Below, piece by piece: positions 2,667 to 19,519 of a DNA stretch of 64,000 bases. Location of the stretch: assembly GCA_934699525.1 (NCBI GenBank), contig CAKUWP010000004.1, positions 42,724 to 106,723 of the forward strand, in the 5' to 3' direction. Origin of the DNA: an uncultured Bacilli bacterium (GTDB lineage: Bacteria; Bacillota_I; Bacilli_A; RFN20; CAG-826). The position numbers and the translations under genes are program-made. The notes below the pieces were generated by a model. It had not been told where the DNA came from, searched no databases, and was given only the letters and a program-made list of their open reading frames with translations. The first letter of the stretch is position 1. Each line of letters opens with the position of its first letter.

Positions 2667-3254
2667 TTATGCCTTTGGATGCCTCCTAAATGGATTTTGG
2701 TCAAACAAATCCATATCATACAAGCGATAAATTCTATCGCCTATGAAATGCGAATCCCACCACGTCAGGAAAACCTGGCCGTCGTTGAGGTAAAACGCAT
2801 AGATAATGGCACCGGAGCCCGCCTCAATTTGAGGCTTGCCAAGTATTGAGACGACCTCCCCAATCGTCATGTCCAATTTCACTTTTTCAGTGTCTTCCAC
2901 CGACGGAAGCATCATCCGAAAAGGATCGAACCACGTGCTTTCATCTGATGGATCGAACACCTTGGAGCGGCTTATCGGGTTTTGCTTCAATAGGCGCGAG
3001 GCAAAGACGTTCCACTCCTCCTCCCCGAAATTCAGCGGAGGGACGTCGCTTACGCCGAATAGGGGCGGGAAAATCGGTTTGGTGAAGGTGGGCGTCACGA
3101 CAACCGGCACATGACTGTTATCTATATTAATTTCTGCAAAATCGTCGTTTTCACTAATTGTCGGTTTATCTCCCGTTCCCAAACCTGTCGATGCACTCAA
3201 AAAGATAAACGGAAGAGTTAAAATCAAAGGTAGAAGTTTTTTGATAAATCGCAT
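2667..3254 (-). CDS. secreted protein of unknown function, member of a tandem paralog family
   Basis: The ORF 2667..3302 has a probable true start at MRFIKKLLPLILTLPFIFLSASTG (signal peptide). It is paralogous to 1951..2418. Confidence 0.6.
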   Translation of the reverse strand: MRFIKKLLPLILTLPFIFLSASTGLGTGDKPTISENDDFAEINIDNSHVPVVVTPTFTKPIFPPLFGVSDVPPLNFGEEEWNVFASRLLKQNPISRSKVFDPSDESTWFDPFRMMLPSVEDTEKVKLDMTIGEVVSILGKPQIEAGSGAIIYAFYLNDGQVFLTWWDSHFIGDRIYRLYDMDLFDQNPFRRHPKA

Positions 3255-3277
3255 ACGCCCTCCCTTCAAATCTATTT

Positions 3278-5644
3278 TTAATCGTAGAAAAGATGGTTCC
3301 ACGGAGTCAATGCATAGAAGCCGAGAAAATTAACATACGAGCCTCTATCGCAAAGTTCTGGATCAACAATCAAATTTCCCGATTCATCCGTTCTTCGCAC
3401 TTTGTCCCGGCCCGGCTTGTGAGACCAGTGGCCATTAGAATCTTGACGATACCAGTGATAATCGCGATCGCTAACAGCCAATGCAACTTTGTATGTCCCG
3501 GAGGGTGTTGTGGCATATTTGCCGACTTCTTGGAACATCAAACTCGTTCCAAACTCTTCATTATATTTAGAAAAATCTCGCATTACCGCTTTTTCCAAAA
3601 CGGTTTTAGTGCAAGAAACATATCTTTCTCCACTGTAATCACCAGGCTGCTGCATTTTCCAAAACTCGTTCGTCCCGGGCCACATTTGGTTGTTTAATAT
3701 ATAGGCGTAGCAATTGTTGTTTTCGATATTTCCCAATCGCCACACGCTTGGGTTATATTTCAATTCGTAACCAGAAAGCGGCAAAGGGTCAATTTCATAA
3801 TACGCCAAATCCCCAATGCATATTCTCCCTAAATTGCTATCGGCATTGACAGCAGTATCGTAAATTTCGGAATAAAACCGAACTTTATACGTAGGTCTAT
3901 CCAACCATACCTGATACAGGTTGGGACGGTTTCTATCTCGCGGAAGGCCAGTGGAATCCGCCAAAAGATCCAATTGGGTTACCCATTCCCCTTTATAAAA
4001 GAATTGAATTTCCGCCTTTCCGTTGGTTTTATCCAGCTTTTCTTTTGAAAATTCGCGCCAATGGGAAAGCTGCACGTCGATTCTATTAACGGTTTTTTCA
4101 AAACTATATTCGATGAACGCATGATCAAACCCCTTTCGTCTCGGCGAAAGCACAATATATTCATTGTGGATATATCCCGCGCGATATCTTCTTGTTTTGA
4201 AAGAACCCCCATTTCTCGTTTGGTGTTCCGTAAAAGTTGTGGCCGTCGCTTCATCGCTGGGGTAAGCGTCCTCATAGCCGTATTCAGCGGGCTTAATATA
4301 CGGCGTTCTTTCGTAATCGACGGGCTTATTGAATTCCCTTCTGCACCAATAACCGTCAAATCCTAGCGTATCCGACGAAGCCTGAATTTCTAAAAACACG
4401 TTATACGTTTTTCCTTTGGTTTCGAATCTAGCTGAATCCCACAATTCTTGCGTCAGCGTATATTCCGTGGAATTAATGCCATAGGCAAAGTTTTTGCGGA
4501 CTCTATCACAATCCAAAATAGAAAGTTTGGTACGAATAAAATAGTTTGAAAACCACTTTTCATTATATAAAGACATCCAACGGAACGTAGGCAAAGCATC
4601 ATTGAAATTCCCTTGCACCAGTTCAATTTCTCTGGGGTACACATAACTGCAAGCGCATAAATTATCACCAAGAGAAGAATGATAATGAAACGCATGGGAA
4701 TGAGAAAAACTAGGCTTAATATCGAGATAAGTTATATCCAGAAGATTATTGTAAGGGAGTTTGGATAACGCAACATGGGTCAACGCAACATTCCTTGTTT
4801 CATCTCGCCAACCGGTATGAACATAGATTTCGTCAGCGTTTTCATCGTAATCATAAGCAATCATGCTATGGCAGGTATTCGTTGTGGGTTCCTTAGCCCG
4901 TAGAATGACGGGCACCCCATCCTTAATTTGTCTAACGACGGCCTCGCGCATTAATTGCTCGTCTTCATTAAAATAGGATTGAACCGTCGCTTTTTGATCT
5001 GAAATATGTGCGTAAGAATTTAAATAAGTCGAGAGCACGTTAGACAATTCCGTTCGATTTAGACCGAGCGAATCACTACTTCCGTCAAATTTGTTGTCTC
5101 CAAAAAGCGATTTGGCAATTTCGATTAATTTAAACTGGAAATACGTGTCGGAATGCAGCGAAACAACTCCGTAATAGTCCTGAATGGAAAGTCCATCAAC
5201 CAACTGCCCGGATTCAAACAACACCCCCGGAGATTCGATGGCGGAGGGGATCAAATCGAAATCCGCCAGATATTGACGGTTCGATTGAAATTCTGAACCG
5301 GCATCATATCTATTATCGATAAAAGCATCATCCCAGTAAGAATCATAAAAAGATAAGAGCATCCCCATAGAAACATAGGAACATGTGCCATGAGAATTAT
5401 TCCCAAAATTAGAATTCAGGTTATCGAAATAATAGCTAGAGTAATGATTGGTTAAGTAGATGGGGGAAGGCGACTCGGTGGACAGCGTATCAAACAAATT
5501 GTCCACATCCGTTTCACCCCTATGGGCAAAGGATAAGCTTTCTATTTTATTCGTTTTTGCAACGATGTGATTCGGCACGTTGCCAACCGCGCCGAAAAAA
5601 ATGGATGTCGCGACAATGAACGCCTTTAGCCCTAATTGCTTCAT
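3278..5644 (-). CDS. large secreted protein with putative C-terminal papain-like cysteine peptidase-like domain
   Basis: 788 aa with a signal peptide MKQLGLKAFIVATSIFFGAVG. The C-terminus has a Cys...His...Asp arrangement (NNCYAY...DYHWYRQD...D) reminiscent of NlpC/P60 or CHAP-like folds. The domain call is inference. Confidence 0.5.
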   Translation of the reverse strand: MKQLGLKAFIVATSIFFGAVGNVPNHIVAKTNKIESLSFAHRGETDVDNLFDTLSTESPSPIYLTNHYSSYYFDNLNSNFGNNSHGTCSYVSMGMLLSFYDSYWDDAFIDNRYDAGSEFQSNRQYLADFDLIPSAIESPGVLFESGQLVDGLSIQDYYGVVSLHSDTYFQFKLIEIAKSLFGDNKFDGSSDSLGLNRTELSNVLSTYLNSYAHISDQKATVQSYFNEDEQLMREAVVRQIKDGVPVILRAKEPTTNTCHSMIAYDYDENADEIYVHTGWRDETRNVALTHVALSKLPYNNLLDITYLDIKPSFSHSHAFHYHSSLGDNLCACSYVYPREIELVQGNFNDALPTFRWMSLYNEKWFSNYFIRTKLSILDCDRVRKNFAYGINSTEYTLTQELWDSARFETKGKTYNVFLEIQASSDTLGFDGYWCRREFNKPVDYERTPYIKPAEYGYEDAYPSDEATATTFTEHQTRNGGSFKTRRYRAGYIHNEYIVLSPRRKGFDHAFIEYSFEKTVNRIDVQLSHWREFSKEKLDKTNGKAEIQFFYKGEWVTQLDLLADSTGLPRDRNRPNLYQVWLDRPTYKVRFYSEIYDTAVNADSNLGRICIGDLAYYEIDPLPLSGYELKYNPSVWRLGNIENNNCYAYILNNQMWPGTNEFWKMQQPGDYSGERYVSCTKTVLEKAVMRDFSKYNEEFGTSLMFQEVGKYATTPSGTYKVALAVSDRDYHWYRQDSNGHWSHKPGRDKVRRTDESGNLIVDPELCDRGSYVNFLGFYALTPWNHLFYD

Positions 5645-5748: not shown

Positions 5749-7050
5749 TTAATCTTTCAACGCCGTTACAGGAATAATATACACGCCCTCAGCATTTTTA
5801 TAAGCGGCGTTACCTACCCCATAGATAACGCATTTGATAATGGGCTCTTTGCCCCCGTTAGCAACAATTTCATTGCAGACTTTCACGAGATTTTTCGACC
5901 CTTCTTCTGCTTTTGCTAGACCCAGTTTGATTTCAATGGCGCACCAATTGCCATCAACCAGTTCAATCACGGCATCGATCTCATTGTTTTTATAGTCCTG
6001 GTAATGAAACAACTTGCCTCCCATGGCTTGTGCATAAATGGATAAATCCCGTTCCACCAATGCTTCGAACATAAACCCAAACGTGTTCAAATCCCCCATC
6101 ATTTTCTTTGGGGTAAGTCCAAGCATAGCACAAGCCATTGCCGGATCCGAAAAATGCCTCTTTTCCATTTGCTTCACGCGAAGTGAGGAACGCAAGTTCG
6201 TCGAAAAGGGTTCTTGGCTGTTTAACAGGAACATCCGTTCAAAAGCATTTAGATATTTTGTAAGCGTGTTTTTGCTGACGGAAGAGGCATCGTTTTCCTC
6301 GATGTCTTTTAAAATGCTTTGATTTGAGACAGTCGTAGATTCATTTCTAGCCAAAGATTTTAGAATTAATTTTGCTTTATGTTCGTCATACTCCTGCCCA
6401 TCTCCCAACCGTTTTAAGTCATTTTTAATAACGTTTTCCATATAGCCAAGAGAAAGTTCGTTACATTCCTCCGAGCCTACGGACAAATTGCCGGGCCATC
6501 CACCCCGAGCAATAAGATAGGCAAGACACTCCAAACTCGTTTGTTCATAAATTTTTGGGGTAAATTTATTTTCACATAAATCTTTTAGGGAGATATCACC
6601 GCTAGAATCCCCCGATTCATAGAGCGACATCGTATTCATCCGAATGCTTTTAATCCTGCCAACCCCACTATGCAAAACACCTTTAAGCACAGGCGTCGAT
6701 GAGCCCGTTAGGATGATCTGCCCTTTTTTACCGCTAGAATCTACGAATGCCCGTGTCGCATCCCAAAGAGAAGGAACTTCTTGCCATTCGTCAATCAGGC
6801 GAGGCGCATCGCCCTTCAAAACGATATAGGGTTCAATTTCGGCTAAAGTGCGATTGGAGAAATTCCCACTAGGATCCCCGACAAGGAATTCGCTGTTTGC
6901 GTGATAGGAAGATGTCCATGTTTTTCCACACCATTTGGGACCTTCGATGCAAACGGCTCCAAAAATTTTTAGGTCCCTATCAATAATGGAATCCACGACT
7001 CTTGCTTTGTAGTGGAGCTTATTCACGATTTTCCCCATAGAATCCCCCAT
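5749..7050 (-). CDS. AAA+ superfamily ATPase, DUF4143/COG1373 family
   Basis: 433 aa with a Walker A-like GPKWCGKTWT. It is a clear paralog of 32765..34039 and more distantly of 31387..32652. Confidence 0.8.
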   Translation of the reverse strand: MGDSMGKIVNKLHYKARVVDSIIDRDLKIFGAVCIEGPKWCGKTWTSSYHANSEFLVGDPSGNFSNRTLAEIEPYIVLKGDAPRLIDEWQEVPSLWDATRAFVDSSGKKGQIILTGSSTPVLKGVLHSGVGRIKSIRMNTMSLYESGDSSGDISLKDLCENKFTPKIYEQTSLECLAYLIARGGWPGNLSVGSEECNELSLGYMENVIKNDLKRLGDGQEYDEHKAKLILKSLARNESTTVSNQSILKDIEENDASSVSKNTLTKYLNAFERMFLLNSQEPFSTNLRSSLRVKQMEKRHFSDPAMACAMLGLTPKKMMGDLNTFGFMFEALVERDLSIYAQAMGGKLFHYQDYKNNEIDAVIELVDGNWCAIEIKLGLAKAEEGSKNLVKVCNEIVANGGKEPIIKCVIYGVGNAAYKNAEGVYIIPVTALKD

Positions 7051-10317: not shown

Positions 10318-11634
10318 TTATTTCACGACGTAAGAAATCGTAATGGAAGCGTTCTTGGAGGCAAAATTCGTTTCATCAATGAGTTTGAAGAAAGAATTTC
10401 CCGATGGAATCGGATAGGCATAAACACCATCCGTATAAGTCGGGGTGACCGCGGTGCCCGGATTGGTATCCGAAATCACCGAGGAAGAAACATAGCAGCT
10501 AAGAACACCATAATACTGGTGTTTAGAAACATCCTTTTCCGTCACCGTGATGGAGGTCAACGTGCCAAGTGAATCCACGTTATAAAGATACCCCGATCCT
10601 TTTTGGGCGTTTCTAAATTGAATGTAGCCATTCGTAAACATGATCGAATCCAATTTGAAGAGAACGTTATTCTTCGTGATTTCGGCAGCCCCGTATTTTG
10701 CAGGGAAATCAGAAGGAGAGAATTCCACGTTATTGGCTCCGGGGATAATGGGGACATATTTGGAAATTTGAATGGAGAAATAGCCTTCTCTAGCCATGTA
10801 TTCGACTTTGAGGAGGTTGGTTTCGTGAATCGCGGTTCCGTTTTTCGAATCTACGGTATACCCGGCATTGGTCAAAGCAGTTTCGTAGTTTGCAACATAG
10901 GTCGCTTCTTCGATGCTAGTATCGTAATTCCCGCCGACGGCAAAATAGGTTTCTCCGGAAGCATAACCATCATACTTCTGTCCTGCTAACAAAGGGAAAG
11001 AAGGGAGGACCGATTCATCAAGTTTTTCGAGTTTAAAGAAGGCAGCAACCGCTTCATAGGGGAAGGTTTCATAGGTAGGAGCCCCTTCTTCATACCAAGC
11101 GAAGACTTCAAAGGCACCGAAATCGAGATTATAGTCGAACTGAACGTTGATTCGATCGTTCGAATCTTCTATCGCATAGGTGTAATAATAAACATCACCA
11201 TCTTCGTCGGTTTGTTTACTATCAAAAACAAAGGAAGCAGCGGCAAGTTGTTTCCCGTAGCTTTCCGACAAATCGCCGCATTCATAATCATAGGCGATGA
11301 AGCATTCTTCGTCTTGGTCCGTTCCGCTGGCGTTGACGTAGGCGTTAGTAAAGCCTCCGGGGAAAGGCAAACAGGTATATCCATGGAGATACTTGGACAT
11401 GTCCTTCAAATCGGATTCGGACCAGGCCGTCGGATTCGTTTCATCTGGTGTAGATTCGGTGGTATTTCCCGAAGTCGTGGAGGATTCCCCAACGTTTTCC
11501 GACGTCGTGGAGGAGGCGCTGTTTCCGTTATTGGAAGCATTTCCCGTATTGCTGGAAGCTCCGCCTTGGGAGCCACAGGAAACTAGACCCATGCACATCG
11601 ATGCAAGGGCTAAAGCAATCCATTTTTTAGTCAT
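10318..11634 (-). CDS. lipoprotein with a Ser/Thr/Asn-rich linker, unknown function
   Basis: 438 aa with a lipobox LVSCGS and a low-complexity S/T/N-rich region. Confidence 0.7.
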   Translation of the reverse strand: MTKKWIALALASMCMGLVSCGSQGGASSNTGNASNNGNSASSTTSENVGESSTTSGNTTESTPDETNPTAWSESDLKDMSKYLHGYTCLPFPGGFTNAYVNASGTDQDEECFIAYDYECGDLSESYGKQLAAASFVFDSKQTDEDGDVYYYTYAIEDSNDRINVQFDYNLDFGAFEVFAWYEEGAPTYETFPYEAVAAFFKLEKLDESVLPSFPLLAGQKYDGYASGETYFAVGGNYDTSIEEATYVANYETALTNAGYTVDSKNGTAIHETNLLKVEYMAREGYFSIQISKYVPIIPGANNVEFSPSDFPAKYGAAEITKNNVLFKLDSIMFTNGYIQFRNAQKGSGYLYNVDSLGTLTSITVTEKDVSKHQYYGVLSCYVSSSVISDTNPGTAVTPTYTDGVYAYPIPSGNSFFKLIDETNFASKNASITISYVVK

Positions 11635-11847
11635 TTTTTAACCTCTAAAATACTGGGTTATTCTAAAACAATTCCTAAAAGGAATAAATTTCTTTTTAAA
11701 GCCGCCGCAAGAGAACAGGGATCGAATTTATGACTACAAAGCCGAAATGGCCGCATGTTCGTTTTAATCAGGGGCAACATTATCGGCAATAAATCGAAAA
11801 CTTATATAAACTATTGCGTTTTTTGCCGATAGATAGATAATACCGTT

Positions 11848-12744
11848 ATGAGTGAATTCATAAGCGTCAAAGAAGCGTCCATTCAATGGAATCTATCGGA
11901 AAGAACCGTCCGGAACTATTGCTCTCTTGGGAGAGTACATGGGGCGATTTTAGTTGGCAAAACATGGAAAATTCCCGCGGGAGCAAAGAAACCGATCCGA
12001 ACCAACGAAAAAGAAGGGAAAAACTATCTTTTGGAGAGGCTGCGCTTAGAAAAGAAAAATCAAATCAAAGGCGGCATCTACCATAAACTGATGATTGACC
12101 TCACCTTCAACTCCAATCACATGGAAGGCAATGAACTCACTCACGATGAGACGAGGTACATCTTTGAAACGAAAACGATAGGAATCGAAAAGAATACCAG
12201 CAAAAAAGTAGACGATATCGTAGAAACGATGAATCATTTTGCCGCCATCGATCGCGTCATTGATTTTGCTAACTATCCATTAAGCGAAACTTTTATCAAA
12301 GAATTACACAAAATACTTAAATCGAATACTAGCGATTCTAGGCTCCCTTATTTCGCCGTTGGCGATTATAAGAAGATGCCCAATGAAGTTGGCGGTTTGG
12401 AAACGACTCACCCAAGGCTTGTGGGGTCCGAAATGAAGAAACTTCTTAGCCAATATAACAAAAAGGAAAGCCATTCTTTGGAAGAAATCGTGGAATTTCA
12501 TGTCCAATTTGAAAGGATTCACCCCTTTCAAGACGGAAACGGAAGGGTGGGCCGCTTAATCGCATTCAAAGAATGCCTAAAGAACAACCTGGTTCCCTTT
12601 ATTATTTTCGACGATAAGAAGGTTTTCTATTATCGGGGCTTAAAGAATTGGGATCAAGAACACGGTTGGCTTATGGACACCTGTTTGGAGGGACAAGATA
12701 TCGTTAAGACGTATTTGGATTATTTCAATATTGCCTATCGATAA
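11848..12744 (+). CDS. Fic family protein (HTH plus Fic domain)
   Basis: 298 aa with the canonical Fic motif HPFQDGNGRVGR and an N-terminal HTH. Confidence 0.85.
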   Translation: MSEFISVKEASIQWNLSERTVRNYCSLGRVHGAILVGKTWKIPAGAKKPIRTNEKEGKNYLLERLRLEKKNQIKGGIYHKLMIDLTFNSNHMEGNELTHDETRYIFETKTIGIEKNTSKKVDDIVETMNHFAAIDRVIDFANYPLSETFIKELHKILKSNTSDSRLPYFAVGDYKKMPNEVGGLETTHPRLVGSEMKKLLSQYNKKESHSLEEIVEFHVQFERIHPFQDGNGRVGRLIAFKECLKNNLVPFIIFDDKKVFYYRGLKNWDQEHGWLMDTCLEGQDIVKTYLDYFNIAYR

Positions 12745-12802
12745 AATCAAAGCCCATAAAAGAAAAAAGTACTGACTTTGGCATCAATACTTTCGTTTTT
12801 AT

Positions 12803-12835
12803 TGGCGCCGGGACGGATTCGAATCGGCGAGGCAC
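12803..12835 (-). repeat. degenerate partial copy of the tRNA-Arg 3' end (T-arm and acceptor), a candidate attachment-site direct repeat
   Basis: tggcgccgggacggattcgaatcggcgagg versus the tRNA 3' end tggcgcgccgggacggattcgaaccggcgacc at 14983. The copy has A in place of the G53:C61 T-stem pair of the tRNA. Confidence 0.6.
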
Positions 12836-13391
12836 GTATCGCGATGGGGACAATTCCCATTCGCTTTCGGTATCGGAGTTCGACTTGGAAAGCGAGAGGC
12901 CGCCTCCAGCGAGCATGGGAACAGGCGAAAGAGCAGGGGCGGGGAACGCAAAAAGAAAGGCTGAAAGCCCCTCGTGGAAGCTGGGGCGAAACCACCCATG
13001 AAAAAATGGTGATTTCAAACAAGAAATACCACGGGAAACAAATAACGTCATAGCGACGCGTAGAATGGTACGAAAACAAGGTTCCATGGATACCTAATTA
13101 CCGCCCAACGAAATGAACCAAAGACGACAAACAGTGAAGCTTGAATAGCAGCTACGGCCAAAACCTCTGCGATAACGAGATCATTTAATTCTTTTTAAAT
13201 GATTGTATCCAAGCGATGCCGAATTTTTGATATTGCGCCATGGGTGCCATGGTTTGTTCTTTCACGCCTTCGCCTATCGTTCATTATTCATTGGTTTCGC
13301 GCGGAGGGTTTGGATGCCAAATGTCATGGAAAGCATTCCCACCAATGTGACAATGAAATAATCCAGTCAAAACTACAGCATAAGTTCGGTA

Positions 13392-14726
13392 TTATTTTAG
13401 AACCTCCCAATGGCCGCCTTTATCGGGGCCAACACGTTTTATCAGTCCTTCTTCCTGCAATTTATTTAGATGATGTCTAACGCTACCCTCGGTCACATTT
13501 AGCAATAACATCAAATCCTTTCTAGAGAGCATTCCATTACTACTTAATAATTCCATAATCGATTCTCTAATTTTTTCTGGCAGTTTTCTGTCACTGGTTC
13601 TGGTTGTTTTATTAAATCCTTGTCTATTGAACGGTATTACAACATCAATGTAAAAATCTGTGAAAATATACGCATCATCCCCATAAGCCTTCACCACCGA
13701 CGGAACTCCATGTCCGCTTTCTTCCGCAAAATTGCACGCTCTAAAGATATCAAATAGCTGTTTGTTTACCGGCTCGCTTTTCCCTTTTAGAAATTGTTCT
13801 TTGGTTAAAGCCCTAGGAATACCTCCAAACGACTCTATTTCTAATCTGTCATTGAAAACATAAATACCCGGATGATTGCTCTCGCTCCATTTATTGTGGA
13901 CGCAGGCATTGATCCAGGCTTGTTCAAAAGCCTCGGTATCAAACATTTTAAGTTCTTTTCTCGGCGTCGTATCTAAATTAACAAAAGTCTGATTAATGGA
14001 ATTGATATAATTTTTGGCCTGTTCCATAGCAAGCAAAAGGCATTTGCCACCAAATTCTTCTCTTTTAAGATACTCCGTTTTATCGGAGGATGAGAAAGTT
14101 GCCACATTAATTACAATGTCATTGGTGTCAGCTAAAATTTCCGCCAAATAATTATATTCGCCGTCTTTCGTAAGCAAATGATAATTATCTAAAAATGTCT
14201 CATCGGAAATATGGTTGTTATTTGATAGCAAATAATTCTTAAGGATTTTAAATGTGAGATGTTTTTTTCTAGAAGGGATATCAATGATGTTGATATCTTT
14301 AATGGTCAAAGATTTGATGAAACGATCCTGTATTTCTTCAGGCAACAAGCTTCTGCATGAAGACCCTATTCTGATATAGCATCCATTCTCAGACAAACCA
14401 TATTTTTTAATGTAAAATAGTTGGTTCCCCTTCTTTATATCAATTCTAATAATGCTTTTTCCTTCTATAGTCTTTCTTTTAGGCGTAACAAAAGAAACAC
14501 ACCTAGGCGAAATTTGATCCGTTACTATATCCGATATCGCTCTGAGAGAATCGTCAATATTTTTAACGCCAATAACATTTCTATTTTTATCTATCCCAAT
14601 ATAAACGGATCCCCCCTCGGTATTCAAAAAGGCAACGATTTCTTTGGGCAATGTATTATTAACAATTTCTTTCAATTCAACCTTATTGTCTTCGTCATCA
14701 AACATAACAATATTCTCTCCAGACAA
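13392..14726 (-). CDS. AlbA_2/Schlafen-like domain ATP-binding protein (COG2865-type putative regulator)
   Basis: 444 aa. The N-terminus (FLNTEGGSVYIGIDKNRNVIGV) is typical of AlbA_2 and the C-terminus has a wHTH. Confidence 0.65.
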   Translation of the reverse strand: MSGENIVMFDDEDNKVELKEIVNNTLPKEIVAFLNTEGGSVYIGIDKNRNVIGVKNIDDSLRAISDIVTDQISPRCVSFVTPKRKTIEGKSIIRIDIKKGNQLFYIKKYGLSENGCYIRIGSSCRSLLPEEIQDRFIKSLTIKDINIIDIPSRKKHLTFKILKNYLLSNNNHISDETFLDNYHLLTKDGEYNYLAEILADTNDIVINVATFSSSDKTEYLKREEFGGKCLLLAMEQAKNYINSINQTFVNLDTTPRKELKMFDTEAFEQAWINACVHNKWSESNHPGIYVFNDRLEIESFGGIPRALTKEQFLKGKSEPVNKQLFDIFRACNFAEESGHGVPSVVKAYGDDAYIFTDFYIDVVIPFNRQGFNKTTRTSDRKLPEKIRESIMELLSSNGMLSRKDLMLLLNVTEGSVRHHLNKLQEEGLIKRVGPDKGGHWEVLK

Positions 14727-14738
14727 TTATATAATATC

Positions 14739-14779
14739 AAAAACAACCAGAAACAACCAGAAAACAACCAGAAAACAAG
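14739..14779. repeat. short tandem repeat (AAACAACCAG x about 3.5)
   Basis: Seen directly in sequence, upstream of the 13392..14726 start. Confidence 0.8.
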
Positions 14780-14982
14780 CAATAAAAATGCAATAACGTT
14801 CATAATAAGCCATACCATGCGTCGAATCGTGTCGACGGATGATTCCGTTTTTAAGACACTCGGCGAAAAATGAACTTCGTCACACTTCTTCCTTTCCAAA
14901 TCCCCCTTAGGGCAAAGCAAGGAAAAAAGACGATAAAACCAAAAAAACTCCGATATTTTACATATCGAAGTCTTTTTTCATT

Positions 14983-15059
14983 TGGCGCGCCGGGACGGAT
15001 TCGAACCGGCGACCGCGAGTTTCGAAGACTCGTGCTCTGTCCAGCTGAGCTACCGGCGC
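14983..15059 (-). tRNA. tRNA-Arg (anticodon TCG)
   Basis: Folded by hand into a 77-nt cloverleaf with a 7-bp acceptor stem GCGCCGG/CCGGCGC. It has an anticodon loop CTTCGAA, a TTCGAAT T-loop and an encoded CCA. Confidence 0.85.
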
Positions 15060-15110
15060 ACTCCAAGGATTATATCTCTATCATCCCGTTCTTGTCGAAT
15101 GAATCAGTCT

Positions 15111-16526
15111 TTATTGAGCGGTCTTTTCTTGGGGGATAGCATCGAATTTCTTGGTCTTTTTCTTGAAAACGATGACGGTGAAAATCAAAGCGTAGGCGGT
15201 TCCTGCGGCTTCGGAAAGGTAACTTGCCCACCAAATGCCATCGATGCCAAAGAAATAGCCAAATACGAAACCAAAGAGGAATAATCCCGCCAGCAAGCGG
15301 ATGATCGTGGCAATCATCGGATGGACGCCATTGCCAAGTCCTTGGAGGACGCCATTAGAAATGATGCAAAAAGAAGCAATGAGGAAGGTGGGGGGCACGA
15401 TGCACATAAGCTGGACTCCACAATCGATCCATTGTTCATCCAAGTTGAAGGCAAGAAGCAAGGGCTTAGGAATCGCTTCGAAGACGATAACGCCGATTCC
15501 TGCGATAATCAGGCCATAAATATAACCCCACTTCGCCGCGATGAAGGCACGCTCCTTGTTCTTGTTGCCATAATTGAAGGCCACAATCGGAAGCATCGCA
15601 TTCACTAACCCATAAAGTGCCATGAAGACGAAGTTCTGCAGTTTAAAGAAGACGCCATAAACGCCAACGAGCATATCTTGGGTCGGGCCCGCGCCTAACA
15701 AAACCATGAAAAGCAATTGATAGACGAGGGGCTGGAGGCTTTGAAGGGCCTGCAAAGCGATGCTAGGAAGACCAACGCGAAGGATTTTGCCCATCATGGG
15801 GAAATCAAAACGGATGTGTTCTTTCTCAATCCGGATTTCTTTGTTGACGAAGGCCACAAGCAAGAAACCAACAACCATGGATACCATTTGGCCGATGATC
15901 GTGGCGATCGCCGCTCCTTCTACTCCCATTCCCCACACGAGGATGAAAAGGGGATCCAGGGCGATATTCACGACGGCACCCGATAACTGCATGACCATGG
16001 CTAGATTGGTTTTGCCGGTCGCGGCAAGGGAACGTTCGCTAACGAGTTGCAGCAATTGGCCAAAGGAGAAAATGAAGCATAAACCCAAATATTTCGAGCC
16101 CATCTCGATGATGGTTTCATCGCTTGTCACGGAGCTAAAATAGAATTTGCCATAGAAAATCGCTAAGCCAAACGCCAAGAAGGCCACGAAGAAAAATAGC
16201 ATTAACGCATAGCCGTTGATGCAAGCTTTCGCAGCCTTGTCGTTTTTGCCTTGGCCCAAAGCTTTCGACAAAACGGCATTGACTCCAATTCCCGTGCCGA
16301 TTGCCACCGCAACAAGCAAAGTCTGAAGGGGGAAGGCATAGCCCAAAGCCACGATGGCTTGGCTATTGGAAGGGGCGGGCATCATGCCGATGAAGATGCT
16401 ATCGACGATGTTATAGAGGGCGCTCACGACCATCGAAAACATCATGGGGAGAGCCGTTTTCAGCAATAAAGAAGGGATGCGGTCGCTGCTCATGCGTTCG
16501 GCCGAGCTTTTTTTGATTTTCTTCAT
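15111..16526 (-). CDS. MATE family efflux transporter
   Basis: 471 aa with 12 TM segments and typical MATE composition. Confidence 0.85.
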   Translation of the reverse strand: MKKIKKSSAERMSSDRIPSLLLKTALPMMFSMVVSALYNIVDSIFIGMMPAPSNSQAIVALGYAFPLQTLLVAVAIGTGIGVNAVLSKALGQGKNDKAAKACINGYALMLFFFVAFLAFGLAIFYGKFYFSSVTSDETIIEMGSKYLGLCFIFSFGQLLQLVSERSLAATGKTNLAMVMQLSGAVVNIALDPLFILVWGMGVEGAAIATIIGQMVSMVVGFLLVAFVNKEIRIEKEHIRFDFPMMGKILRVGLPSIALQALQSLQPLVYQLLFMVLLGAGPTQDMLVGVYGVFFKLQNFVFMALYGLVNAMLPIVAFNYGNKNKERAFIAAKWGYIYGLIIAGIGVIVFEAIPKPLLLAFNLDEQWIDCGVQLMCIVPPTFLIASFCIISNGVLQGLGNGVHPMIATIIRLLAGLFLFGFVFGYFFGIDGIWWASYLSEAAGTAYALIFTVIVFKKKTKKFDAIPQEKTAQ

Positions 16527-17251: not shown

Positions 17252-19519
17252 TTAAGCCGCAGCCGCTTCTTTTTTCTTTTTGGCTTTGTCATAGAAATAA
17301 AGCCCAACGAATCCTCCAGCAAGGACCGGGAGAGTGATCGCCAAGGTCCAAACGTATTGGAGGGTGACGTAAGTCAAGCAGCCCATCGCATAGCTAAGGA
17401 TCAGCCAGAAGAGGACGGTGCCGACATAGGCTTTGCCTTTGCCAAGTTCTCCTTTTGCCGCGGCAACCGAAGCAAAGCAAGGAATCGTAAGCATGTTGAA
17501 GACGGCGAAGGCAGCTAGAGCAGCGGGGCTGATACCCATCGAGGCCACAAGGCCTTCGAAGCCGTCTTGGCCAAGGATTTCGGCCAAAGAGGCAACAACC
17601 GAGGTGACGTTTTCTTTGGCGACGATACCTTCTATGGATGCTACCGCCAAAGTCCAGCCATTGGCTCCGGCTTGAGTGCCGAATCCCATCGGGGTGAATA
17701 GGGGTTGGATGAGCATGCCGAGGCTTTGCAGGATCGACCCTTGTCCATCCGCTTCGACCATTTGCCAGTTCCAGGAGAAATTAGCGAGGAACCAGACGAC
17801 GATTGTCGAGGCAAGAATGATCGTGAAGGCTTTTTGGATGAAGTGTTTGCCTTTATCCCAAACGTGGAGAGAAAGGGCGCGGAATTGCGGGGCGTGATAG
17901 GCGGGAAGCTCCATGATGAAGGGAGGGACTTTCTCGCGTTGGGTCGTCTTGTTCATGACGATGACGGAGAAGATGGCAATCACAACGCCAAGGAGGTAGA
18001 GCAAGAAGGTGAATAGCCCAGCATCGAATCCTGCCGAAGCAGCCACGGCAGCGGCGATAACCGCCAAGAATTCGGCTTTGGCTCCGCAGGTGAAGAAGGG
18101 GATGACGCGAAGCGTTTTCACGCGTTCTTTGTCGCTAGCAAGGGTGCGGGTGTTGATCATCGCAGGGACGGCGCAACCAAATCCCATGATCATCGGGATG
18201 AAGGCGCGTCCCGAGACGCCGAAGCGGCGGAACAAACGGTCCAACATGAAGGCCACGCGAGCCATGTAGCCCGAATCCTCCATGAAGGCGAAGAAAGCGA
18301 ATAGCAACATGATTTGGGGAACGAATCCGAGGACGGCCGTAACGCCGGTGATGACACCGTCATAGAAGAATCCCATGACCCAATCCGGGGCGTTGCAGAC
18401 ATACATCAGTTGTTTGAATCCCAAGGCGATGCAGCCGAGGATTCCCGTTTCTTGGTCTCCGGCGAGACGGTGGAGGAATTCTCCGATCGAGACGATGCCC
18501 GCATCGTCATAGAAGAGCCCTTCGAAGGGGTGCACTTCTTCTCCAGCAATCATGAAGGAGATAAATCCGGGATAGGTGTCGAGCTTGAGCCCCATCGCAT
18601 TCATATAGAAGAGGTCACCCGCGAAGGTGAAATGGAACACTAAGAAGAGGAGAGCGACCATGATGAGGGGTCCAAAGACGCGGTGGGTGAGGACCCGGTC
18701 GATCTTATCCGACTTGGATAATTTGTCTTTCTCTTTCTTTTCCTTGCCCGAGACGATTTTCTCGCAGGCGGGGGTAAGAGCTTGGTAACGGAGATCGGCG
18801 ATATCCGCTTCATAGTCTTTTTCTTTGGCTTCGGGAAGCTCTTGGACTTTTTGGTAGCAGTCTTTGTTCTCGATTGCTTCGTGCTCATCCTTTTCAAAGG
18901 CTTTGATCGCGCGGAAGAGGGAATGAGAGATTTCACCCGCTTCATAAATGGCTTTGGCTTTCTCAATCGAGGCATCTTGAATCAAGGTGATTCCTTGTCG
19001 CGAATGCTCGCTTGCTTTTTTCGCTTCGACCATCAAGTCTTCTAGACCCGAATTGCGGAGAGCCGAAATCGGGCAGACAGGGATGCCAAGAAGGTCGCGG
19101 AGGGCTTTGTAATCAATGGAAACCCCATTTTCTTTCAAAGCATCGACCATGTTGACCGCGGCAACGACGGGGACATCCATCTCAAGAATTTGAGTGGTGA
19201 GGTAGAGGTTTCTCTCCAAGTTCGTTCCGTCGATGACGTTAATGATGACATCGGGCTTTTCTTTGAGGATATAGTCCCGAGAAATCACTTCTTCGGGGGT
19301 ATAGGGGGACAAAGAGTAAATGCCCGGAAGGTCGACGATTTCTACGCCTTCCTTCTTCTTTTTGTCTCCTTTGAAATAGAAGGTTCCGCTGCGCTTCTCC
19401 ACCGTGACTCCCGGCCAGTTTCCGACATAAGCCGTCGATCCGGTCAGCGAGTTGAACAACGTGGTTTTGCCGCAGTTAGGGTTGCCGGCTAAGGCAACGC
19501 GAAGGTGCTTATTTTCCAT
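17252..19519 (-). CDS. feoB: ferrous iron transporter FeoB
   Basis: 755 aa with an N-terminal G domain (GNPNCGKTTLFN) and a C-terminal permease. Confidence 0.95.
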   Translation of the reverse strand: MENKHLRVALAGNPNCGKTTLFNSLTGSTAYVGNWPGVTVEKRSGTFYFKGDKKKKEGVEIVDLPGIYSLSPYTPEEVISRDYILKEKPDVIINVIDGTNLERNLYLTTQILEMDVPVVAAVNMVDALKENGVSIDYKALRDLLGIPVCPISALRNSGLEDLMVEAKKASEHSRQGITLIQDASIEKAKAIYEAGEISHSLFRAIKAFEKDEHEAIENKDCYQKVQELPEAKEKDYEADIADLRYQALTPACEKIVSGKEKKEKDKLSKSDKIDRVLTHRVFGPLIMVALLFLVFHFTFAGDLFYMNAMGLKLDTYPGFISFMIAGEEVHPFEGLFYDDAGIVSIGEFLHRLAGDQETGILGCIALGFKQLMYVCNAPDWVMGFFYDGVITGVTAVLGFVPQIMLLFAFFAFMEDSGYMARVAFMLDRLFRRFGVSGRAFIPMIMGFGCAVPAMINTRTLASDKERVKTLRVIPFFTCGAKAEFLAVIAAAVAASAGFDAGLFTFLLYLLGVVIAIFSVIVMNKTTQREKVPPFIMELPAYHAPQFRALSLHVWDKGKHFIQKAFTIILASTIVVWFLANFSWNWQMVEADGQGSILQSLGMLIQPLFTPMGFGTQAGANGWTLAVASIEGIVAKENVTSVVASLAEILGQDGFEGLVASMGISPAALAAFAVFNMLTIPCFASVAAAKGELGKGKAYVGTVLFWLILSYAMGCLTYVTLQYVWTLAITLPVLAGGFVGLYFYDKAKKKKEAAAA

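Follow-up and report, generated by a model that had tools for sequence, protein, structure and literature searches.

A probable relic of site-specific integration at the 3' end of a tRNA-Arg(TCG) gene in an uncultured gut Bacilli bacterium

We analysed a 64-kb stretch of DNA (the window) from an uncultured gut Bacilli bacterium of a lineage described as RF39-like, in which a 2.15-kb islet separates the 3' end of a tRNA-Arg(TCG) gene from a displaced second copy of that 3' end. We conclude with good confidence that the islet is what remains of a site-specific integration at the tRNA 3' end, that its integrase has gone, and that it resembles cis-mobilizable elements (CIMEs). Judged by its sequence, the DNA inserted at the tRNA gene is foreign, a real integrated element but an ordinary and decayed one. 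The features that delimit it, including the attachment (att) sites, are as follows.

14983-15059, minus strand: intact tRNA-Arg(TCG) gene (ARAGORN; Rfam; promoter scan).
14983-15012, minus strand: attL core, the final 30 nt of the tRNA from T-arm to CCA, TCGCCGGTTCGAATCCGTCCCGGCGCGCCA (repeat finder; att alignment).
12803-12830, minus strand: attR core, a second and now displaced tRNA 3' end, with 27/28 bases identical and 2 nt deleted (repeat finder; att alignment).
12752-12802, minus strand: native tRNA terminator, found directly after the tRNA in the relatives L003 and L001 (comparison; fold -13.4 kcal/mol, z -4.0).

ARAGORN identified the tRNA-Arg(TCG) gene as the sole tRNA in the window, at the same coordinates as in a preliminary description of this DNA, and the gene scored 62.1 bits against the Rfam tRNA model RF00005. 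A promoter-like TCGACA-18-TATAAT was found upstream of it at 15098-15069 by promoter scanning. The repeated block TCGCCGGTTCGAATCCGTCCCGGCGCGCCA spans, in the tRNA sense, the T-stem 5' strand through the CCA end, and its second copy lies downstream of the tRNA in the same orientation. The repeat finder reported a 26-nt ungapped direct repeat with 25/26 identical positions between 12805-12830 and 14987-15012, and in the aligned att sites attR has A for G at one position of the T-stem and lacks 2 nt (GC) of the acceptor strand. Weaker similarity between attL and attR extends about 10 nt beyond the CCA (AAT(G)AAAAA(A)GA). At the other side the identity stops sharply at the T-stem, and the att alignment showed no similarity to the tRNA 5' half beside attR. 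The preliminary description had placed a degenerate copy at 12803-12835 and allowed that it might prove too degenerate to count. The repeat is real, ends at 12830 and is less degenerate than described, and the doubt is answered by the 27/28 identity together with a 20-mer of the block which, with up to 3 mismatches allowed, matched attL and attR alone in the 64 kb and gave two matches in 0 of 100 shuffles.

The comparison with relatives provided the empty site. Species-representative genomes were scanned with the neighbouring MatE protein, which yielded contigs from metagenome-assembled genomes (MAGs) of uncultured gut Bacilli and Mollicutes; three of them have the same tRNA-Arg beside MatE. 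In L003 (CAKUXV010000008) and L001 (CAAFZT010000046), the tRNA-Arg runs directly into the terminator that the window carries beyond attR: the CCA of the tRNA is followed by AAT(C/G)AAAAAAGAAAGTATTGA...TACTTTTTTC, and in the window the same terminator, which faces the 3' end of a Fic gene, comes after the distal copy. The blastn alignments of L003 to window positions 16978-14971 and 12830-10030 overlap on the tRNA 3' end, and the 2.15 kb between them is absent from L003. Only in L003 does the Fic gene too come after the tRNA-Arg and the native terminator; the L001 sequence diverges right after the terminator and is unrelated to the window there. In a six-way alignment of two empty sites, two tRNA-side junctions and two distal junctions, attB was composed of the left half of attL and the right half of attR. 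The search for an empty site proposed in the preliminary description thus came out positive, with L003 and L001 both uninterrupted. A regenerated tRNA gene (tDNA) and a displaced fragment are known to mark the ends of tDNA islands (PMC4383910).

The interior of the islet (12831-14982) contains the following features, from the tRNA outwards.

14937-14982, minus strand: tRNA-proximal end, 46 bp, common to the insert of L002 (see below), with a strong terminator hairpin (blastn; terminator scan; fold).
14706-14936, minus strand: AT-rich leader and predicted promoter of the cargo gene, with three tandem TTTTCTGGTTG units, TATAAT and the ribosome-binding site GGAGAG (repeat finder; homologue comparison).
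13392-14705, minus strand: cargo gene of 437 aa with SLFN_AlbA_2, HATPase_c_4 and a C-terminal winged helix-turn-helix (wHTH) (Pfam; protein on record).
13060-13381, minus strand: pseudogene of a 142-aa membrane protein, with stops and frameshifts (tblastn E 7e-11; tblastx in three frames, E 7e-15).
12897-13059, no strand assigned: 163 bp of G+C-rich DNA with two terminator-like hairpins on the minus strand (terminator scan; composition).
12831-12896, minus strand: distal end, 66 bp, sharing 89% identity with its counterpart in L002 and L025 (blastn; folds; unique in the window).

The AlbA_2/Schlafen-like gene reported in the preliminary description was confirmed (PF04326, E 1.8e-19), as were a short tandem repeat in its AT-rich flank, now seen as three TTTTCTGGTTG units at 14740-14774 on the plus strand directly upstream of the TATAAT, and a Fic gene just outside the islet. 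The interval is not a single-gene insert as described there, since the pseudogene is also inside; its intact counterpart is a 142-aa membrane protein encoded after the AlbA_2 homologue in the contig L018. The mechanical open reading frame (ORF) of the AlbA_2 gene (13392-14726) begins at a TTG; the true initiation codon is the ATG at 14705, preceded by the GGAGAG. The exact 437-aa protein is on record from several human-gut assemblies in the same gene context, a 99%-identical protein is encoded on a 1.05-Mb contig of an NCBI assembly of this species, and ERZ28615670 and ERZ4567219 are among the samples in which the islet occurs. For the 163-bp stretch no homologue was found, tblastx and Rfam being among the searches run. 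The G+C content is 0.355 in the AlbA_2 coding sequence and 0.385 in the islet, against 0.433 in the window and 0.49-0.53 in the neighbouring MatE and FeoB genes. A transfer-messenger RNA (tmRNA) or other structured RNA, made up of the G+C-rich non-coding stretch 12831-13391 and the tRNA-like end, was considered and rejected: Rfam gave no match there, whether at the gathering score or at E up to 10, and the interval is mostly pseudogene; across 12600-15200 nothing credible other than the tRNA appeared at that threshold.

A different insert occupies the same position in two further genomes. L002 (UMGS153) and L025, which are 98.6% identical to each other, carry a 0.69-kb insert bounded by a perfect 30-nt (30/30) tRNA repeat at which the similarity ends abruptly. 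By blastn, the L002 insert and that of the window share just two segments, the 46 bp at the tRNA-proximal end and the 66 bp at the distal end; the cargo of L002, a 125-aa zinc-ribbon/coiled-coil ORF, is unrelated to that of the window. The hairpin of the proximal end (-17.3 kcal/mol, z -7.1) takes the place of the native terminator of the tRNA. The distal end carries a hairpin, ATGGG(G)...CCCCAT, kept in both versions of the insert despite indels. The divergence of the shared ends (89% identity) is about that of the flanking chromosome (88-93%), and the insert is patchily present among genomes that are ~93% identical in the flanks. A homologue of the L002 cargo sits in a tmRNA-associated island of the contig L030, in which neither an integrase nor the shared ends were found.

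We searched for a recombinase or a parent element. Pfam (Phage_integrase, Resolvase/Recombinase and transposase families) showed no integrase, resolvase, recombinase or transposase domain in any ORF of at least 90 aa in the 64-kb window, and XerD tblastn and tyrosine/serine recombinase motif scans of the window were negative. The attP sought had the order distal end, core, proximal end (...CCCCATCGCGATAYGTGMC-TCGCCGGTTCGAATCCGTCCCGGCGCGCCA-NNNNAAAAAAGACTTCGATA...). In IMG/VR viral contigs the distal end joined to the core was absent, as were the cores of 30 nt and 23 nt by themselves; when the islet was compared by blastn with phage and plasmid records, the matches were confined to tRNAs; and a single metagenome scan returned two loci, both of the L002 type. 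The flanking Fic, 438-aa ORF, MATE and FeoB genes are conserved in the empty-site contig L003, which marks both flanks of the islet as chromosomal. The preliminary description had offered two alternatives, an integrated element that has lost its integrase or one whose integrase lies beyond; the latter found no support in the window, and the former fits the empty sites, the att halves and the lack of a recombinase there.

Homologues of the cargo protein, which number in the hundreds, were compared for their contexts. Those with 74-81% identity come from other Bacilli MAGs that are richer in AT, and their gene neighbourhoods are unrelated. Of eight distinct contexts, five have a tRNA or tmRNA gene directly upstream and on the same strand, namely:

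Window: tRNA-Arg(TCG).
L018, 7545-9314: tRNA-Pro(TGG).
L020 (7478-9320) and L023: tRNA-Val(CAC).
L029, 9213-11326: tRNA-Glu(CTC).
L038 (2151-11338) and L039 (4000-7752): tmRNA.

AlbA_2 homologues thus recurrently come first, or among the first genes, after a tRNA or tmRNA on the same strand. The remaining contexts are defence-type islands: L027 (a DpnII restriction-modification system, ThsA and AAA_13), L017 (a superfamily-1 helicase) and L037 (paralogue arrays). An origin of the islet by integration is supported by the lower G+C content of the cargo than of its surroundings and by these 74-81% identical homologues in unrelated contexts, often beside a tRNA or tmRNA.

Taken together, the boundaries point to the following course of events. 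Tyrosine integrases are the sole recombinases known to target tDNAs (PMC4383910), and integration by such an enzyme is suggested because the identical block reaches from the T-arm to the 3' end, the similarity breaks off sharply at the T-stem, and a displaced fragment of the same orientation lies downstream. The incoming DNA would have supplied a replacement for the last 30 nt of the tRNA and a new terminator on the attL side, as is suggested because the proximal segment is a strong terminator hairpin. The original 3' end and the native terminator would have been displaced by 2.15 kb to the attR side, where the unused copy would have begun to decay; decay is indicated by the pseudogene and the degenerate attR. 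The element would now be left without an integrase, with one intact passenger gene (AlbA_2/Schlafen-like) and one dead gene, and its movement would need a cognate integrase acting in trans. Most likely, the islet is fixed and immobile in its lineage.

Several observations weigh against this reading. No integrase, integrase fragment or excisionase was found, and for this reason we infer a recombinase from the architecture alone. No parent with an attP turned up in the viral contigs, the phage and plasmid records or the one metagenome scan. Repeats of tRNA fragments were not found within 8-10 kb at L018, L020, L023, L029, L030, L038 and L039, and the four genomes compared at the site may reflect either a gain in the window or a precise loss in L001 and L003. 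An origin without any site-specific recombinase, by illegitimate or homologous recombination in a tRNA-flank hot spot, for example through an imported foreign tRNA-Arg fragment with the repeat as a by-product, would account for the missing recombinase and for the general variability of the region downstream of the tRNA, as seen in L001 right after the terminator. We nevertheless regard it as very improbable, for two different cargos have the same precise junctions, the repeat coincides exactly with the T-arm-to-3'-end block typical of integrase targets, and the element, like other integrating elements, supplies a terminator of its own (PMC4383910). Still harder to credit is a distal copy left over from a decayed second, tandem tRNA-Arg, with ordinary chromosome in between. 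That copy does have the orientation of the tRNA and is followed by a terminator; however, neither the window nor L002 shows similarity to the 5' two-thirds of the tRNA upstream of the copy, the single tRNA of the relatives abuts that same terminator, and two lineages have different DNA between the copies.

The shared ends of the two inserts raise a different question, namely whether the islet could belong to a family of still-active miniature elements, each with conserved att ends (46 bp and 66 bp), one variable cargo gene and an integrase acting in trans from elsewhere or from a helper. Two unrelated cargos between the same ends and core, the perfect 30/30 repeat of L002, the distal hairpin retained despite indels and the patchy presence of the insert would all suit such a family, which we consider unlikely. 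Just two cargo variants were seen, and neither an attP junction nor a helper was found; divergence at the ends is about that of the flanks, which fits one old, vertically inherited insertion; the attR of the window is damaged and one of its cargo genes is dead; and one ancestral island with different deletions explains the shared ends equally well, their lengths then being deletion endpoints. We therefore favour, over att arms moved in trans, the view that the 46-bp and 66-bp ends may be the spared remnants of one larger ancestral island that underwent a separate internal deletion in each lineage, because the ends have diverged like the flanks, the attR is damaged with one cargo gene dead, and no third cargo or helper was found. 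It is correspondingly doubtful that the two ends and the 30-nt tRNA core form a reusable module by which one-gene, integrase-less units are exchanged in trans at tRNA-Arg; if true, gut Bacilli with reduced genomes would possess a system of cassette exchange at a tRNA gene.

As the relic of an integration, the islet can be set beside several known kinds of element. It resembles tRNA/tmRNA islands of the Islander type (PMC4383910) in its tRNA 3' target, its regenerated tRNA, the same-orientation fragment that marks the far end, the empty site in relatives and its atypical composition; unlike them, it has no integrase gene, measures 2.15 kb, holds a single intact gene and has a slightly damaged fragment. 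Among the hallmarks of tDNA islands, it shows the insert on the 3' side with its fragment, attB in relatives and a deviating composition, and lacks the integrase inside; it would fail the Islander integrase filter because it has no integrase gene. CIMEs, as defined in work on streptococcal integrative and conjugative or integrative and mobilizable elements (ICEs and IMEs), have lost their integration and transfer genes and kept attL and attR (PMC5704250). The islet likewise keeps attL and attR at a tRNA 3' end without integration or transfer genes; unlike CIMEs, it shows no conjugation or relaxase remnants, and its host is an RF39-like gut Bacilli bacterium rather than a streptococcus. From its sequence features, the islet would fall under the descriptive definition of a CIME, which does not imply descent from an ICE or IME. 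The degenerate tycheposon remnants of Prochlorococcus (bioRxiv 10.1101/2020.12.28.424599) are similar in having partial tRNAs and decayed remains beside island tRNAs in small genomes, and their cargo often consists of defence or niche genes (bioRxiv 10.1101/2020.12.28.424599). In contrast to them, the islet belongs to an unrelated host, has no tycheposon integrase or replication module, and has one tRNA fragment in 64 kb rather than an array.

The finding adds no new mechanism, as elements of this kind are well known. It provides a base-precise decayed tRNA islet, with attB, attL and attR defined, in a poorly studied lineage, of a type that Islander-like finders requiring an integrase would miss, and it shows how single defence-like genes can end up stranded in small genomes. 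In practice it is useful chiefly as an annotated att site and for drawing attention to the AlbA_2-HATPase_c_4-wHTH family, whose conserved repeats are candidate operators.

Two other classes of mobile DNA were considered and rejected. For a prophage or phage satellite, the blastn matches to phages comprised the tRNA alone, viral contigs held neither the core nor the ends nor a close AlbA_2 relative, and the sole PHROG match was to the AlbA_2 family. For an insertion sequence or miniature inverted-repeat transposable element, no inverted repeat joins the ends, the flanking repeat is a 28-30-nt tRNA segment and not a short duplication, and no transposase domain was found.

Bacterial proteins with the AlbA_2 (Schlafen-like) domain are associated with defence islands (PMC12680541). 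The cargo protein is like these in having AlbA_2 together with HATPase_c_4 and homologues in defence-rich or mobile neighbourhoods; unlike them, it does not belong to the Avs9/STAND proteins, and PADLOC assigned it to no defence system. It matches PHROG 12156 over its full length (E 4.7e-64), with no close relatives in viral contigs. The AlbA_2 domain aligns weakly with SLFN11 chains (E 1e-5) and the HATPase_c_4 part with the uncharacterised PDB entry 3LMM. The cargo appears to be a typical island passenger, possibly defence-related or regulatory, and the combination of AlbA_2, HATPase_c_4 and wHTH would make it a putative, uncharacterised regulator.

We surveyed the repeats at nine loci, namely the window (14740-14774 and 13595-13610), L017, L018, L020, L026, L027, L029, L037 and L038. 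Three tandem TTTTCTGGTTG units with an 11-nt period were present directly upstream of the -10 box in 9/9 AlbA_2 homologues examined. In 7/9 of them, one to three inverted copies, ACAACCAGAA, were also found within the coding sequence, at +1098 and +1121, immediately ahead of the wHTH part; these are 23 nt apart and hence in different reading frames, which indicates constraint at the DNA level. The TTTTCTGGTTG and ACAACCAGAA repeats may serve as operators, for autoregulation or looping, or may have some other role, and the cargo gene of the islet is probably autoregulated through the three 11-nt repeats at its promoter. Between the tmRNA and the AlbA_2 gene, L038 (2151-9692) encodes an HTH gene, a Dcm methylase, a MutH-like endonuclease, a 163-aa ORF, a large serine recombinase and a 432-aa AlbA_2 paralogue; the related L039 (4000-6415) has instead a single 440-aa ORF with no Pfam match on record.

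The chromosomal genes nearest the islet were assigned by Pfam as follows.

11848-12744, plus strand: Fic.
15111-16526, minus strand: MatE.
17252-19519, minus strand: FeoB.

The Fic gene matches the PADLOC candidate family PDC-S04 (E 2e-104), has an N-terminal HTH/excisionase-like segment and is paired with the uncharacterised 438-aa ORF (window 10318-12744). This pair may itself be variable, given that L001 (2210-2349) is unrelated to the window after the native terminator. In the tmRNA-associated island of L030 (11056-13585), a Fic gene is followed by a 435-aa ORF without a Pfam match, which does not imply kinship with the 438-aa ORF of the window.

Further along the window, 29589-63268 forms a long run of defence-type or mobile-type genes, with many ORFs between them that have no Pfam match. 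It contains AbiEii/AbiEi, two AAA_14-DUF4143 ATPases (a third lies at 5749-7050), an FtsH-like AAA+M41 protein, an FtsK-like fragment, a 1075-aa TIR-DUF6273 protein and an SPFH protein with zinc ribbons, and ends with a WYL-WCX regulator and a Dcm methylase with a MutH/Sau3AI-like endonuclease. The ORFs at 1951-2418 and 2667-3302, neither with a Pfam match, have near-identical C-terminal regions of ~150 aa (…VVVTP.(F/S)TKPIFPP(L/M)FGVSD…) and seem to stem from a gene for a secreted or lipoprotein-like product that was recently duplicated in tandem. A 104-aa ORF at 28765-29079 matches the C-terminal end of Glyco_hydro_1 alone (profile 366-416 of 453) and is probably a gene remnant beside a GH94-like gene. 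The public record L004 (CAVGNR010000017.1), titled 'Escherichia coli isolate ... cleanbin', encodes a MatE 75% identical to that of the Bacilli lineage and is probably mislabelled or mis-binned.

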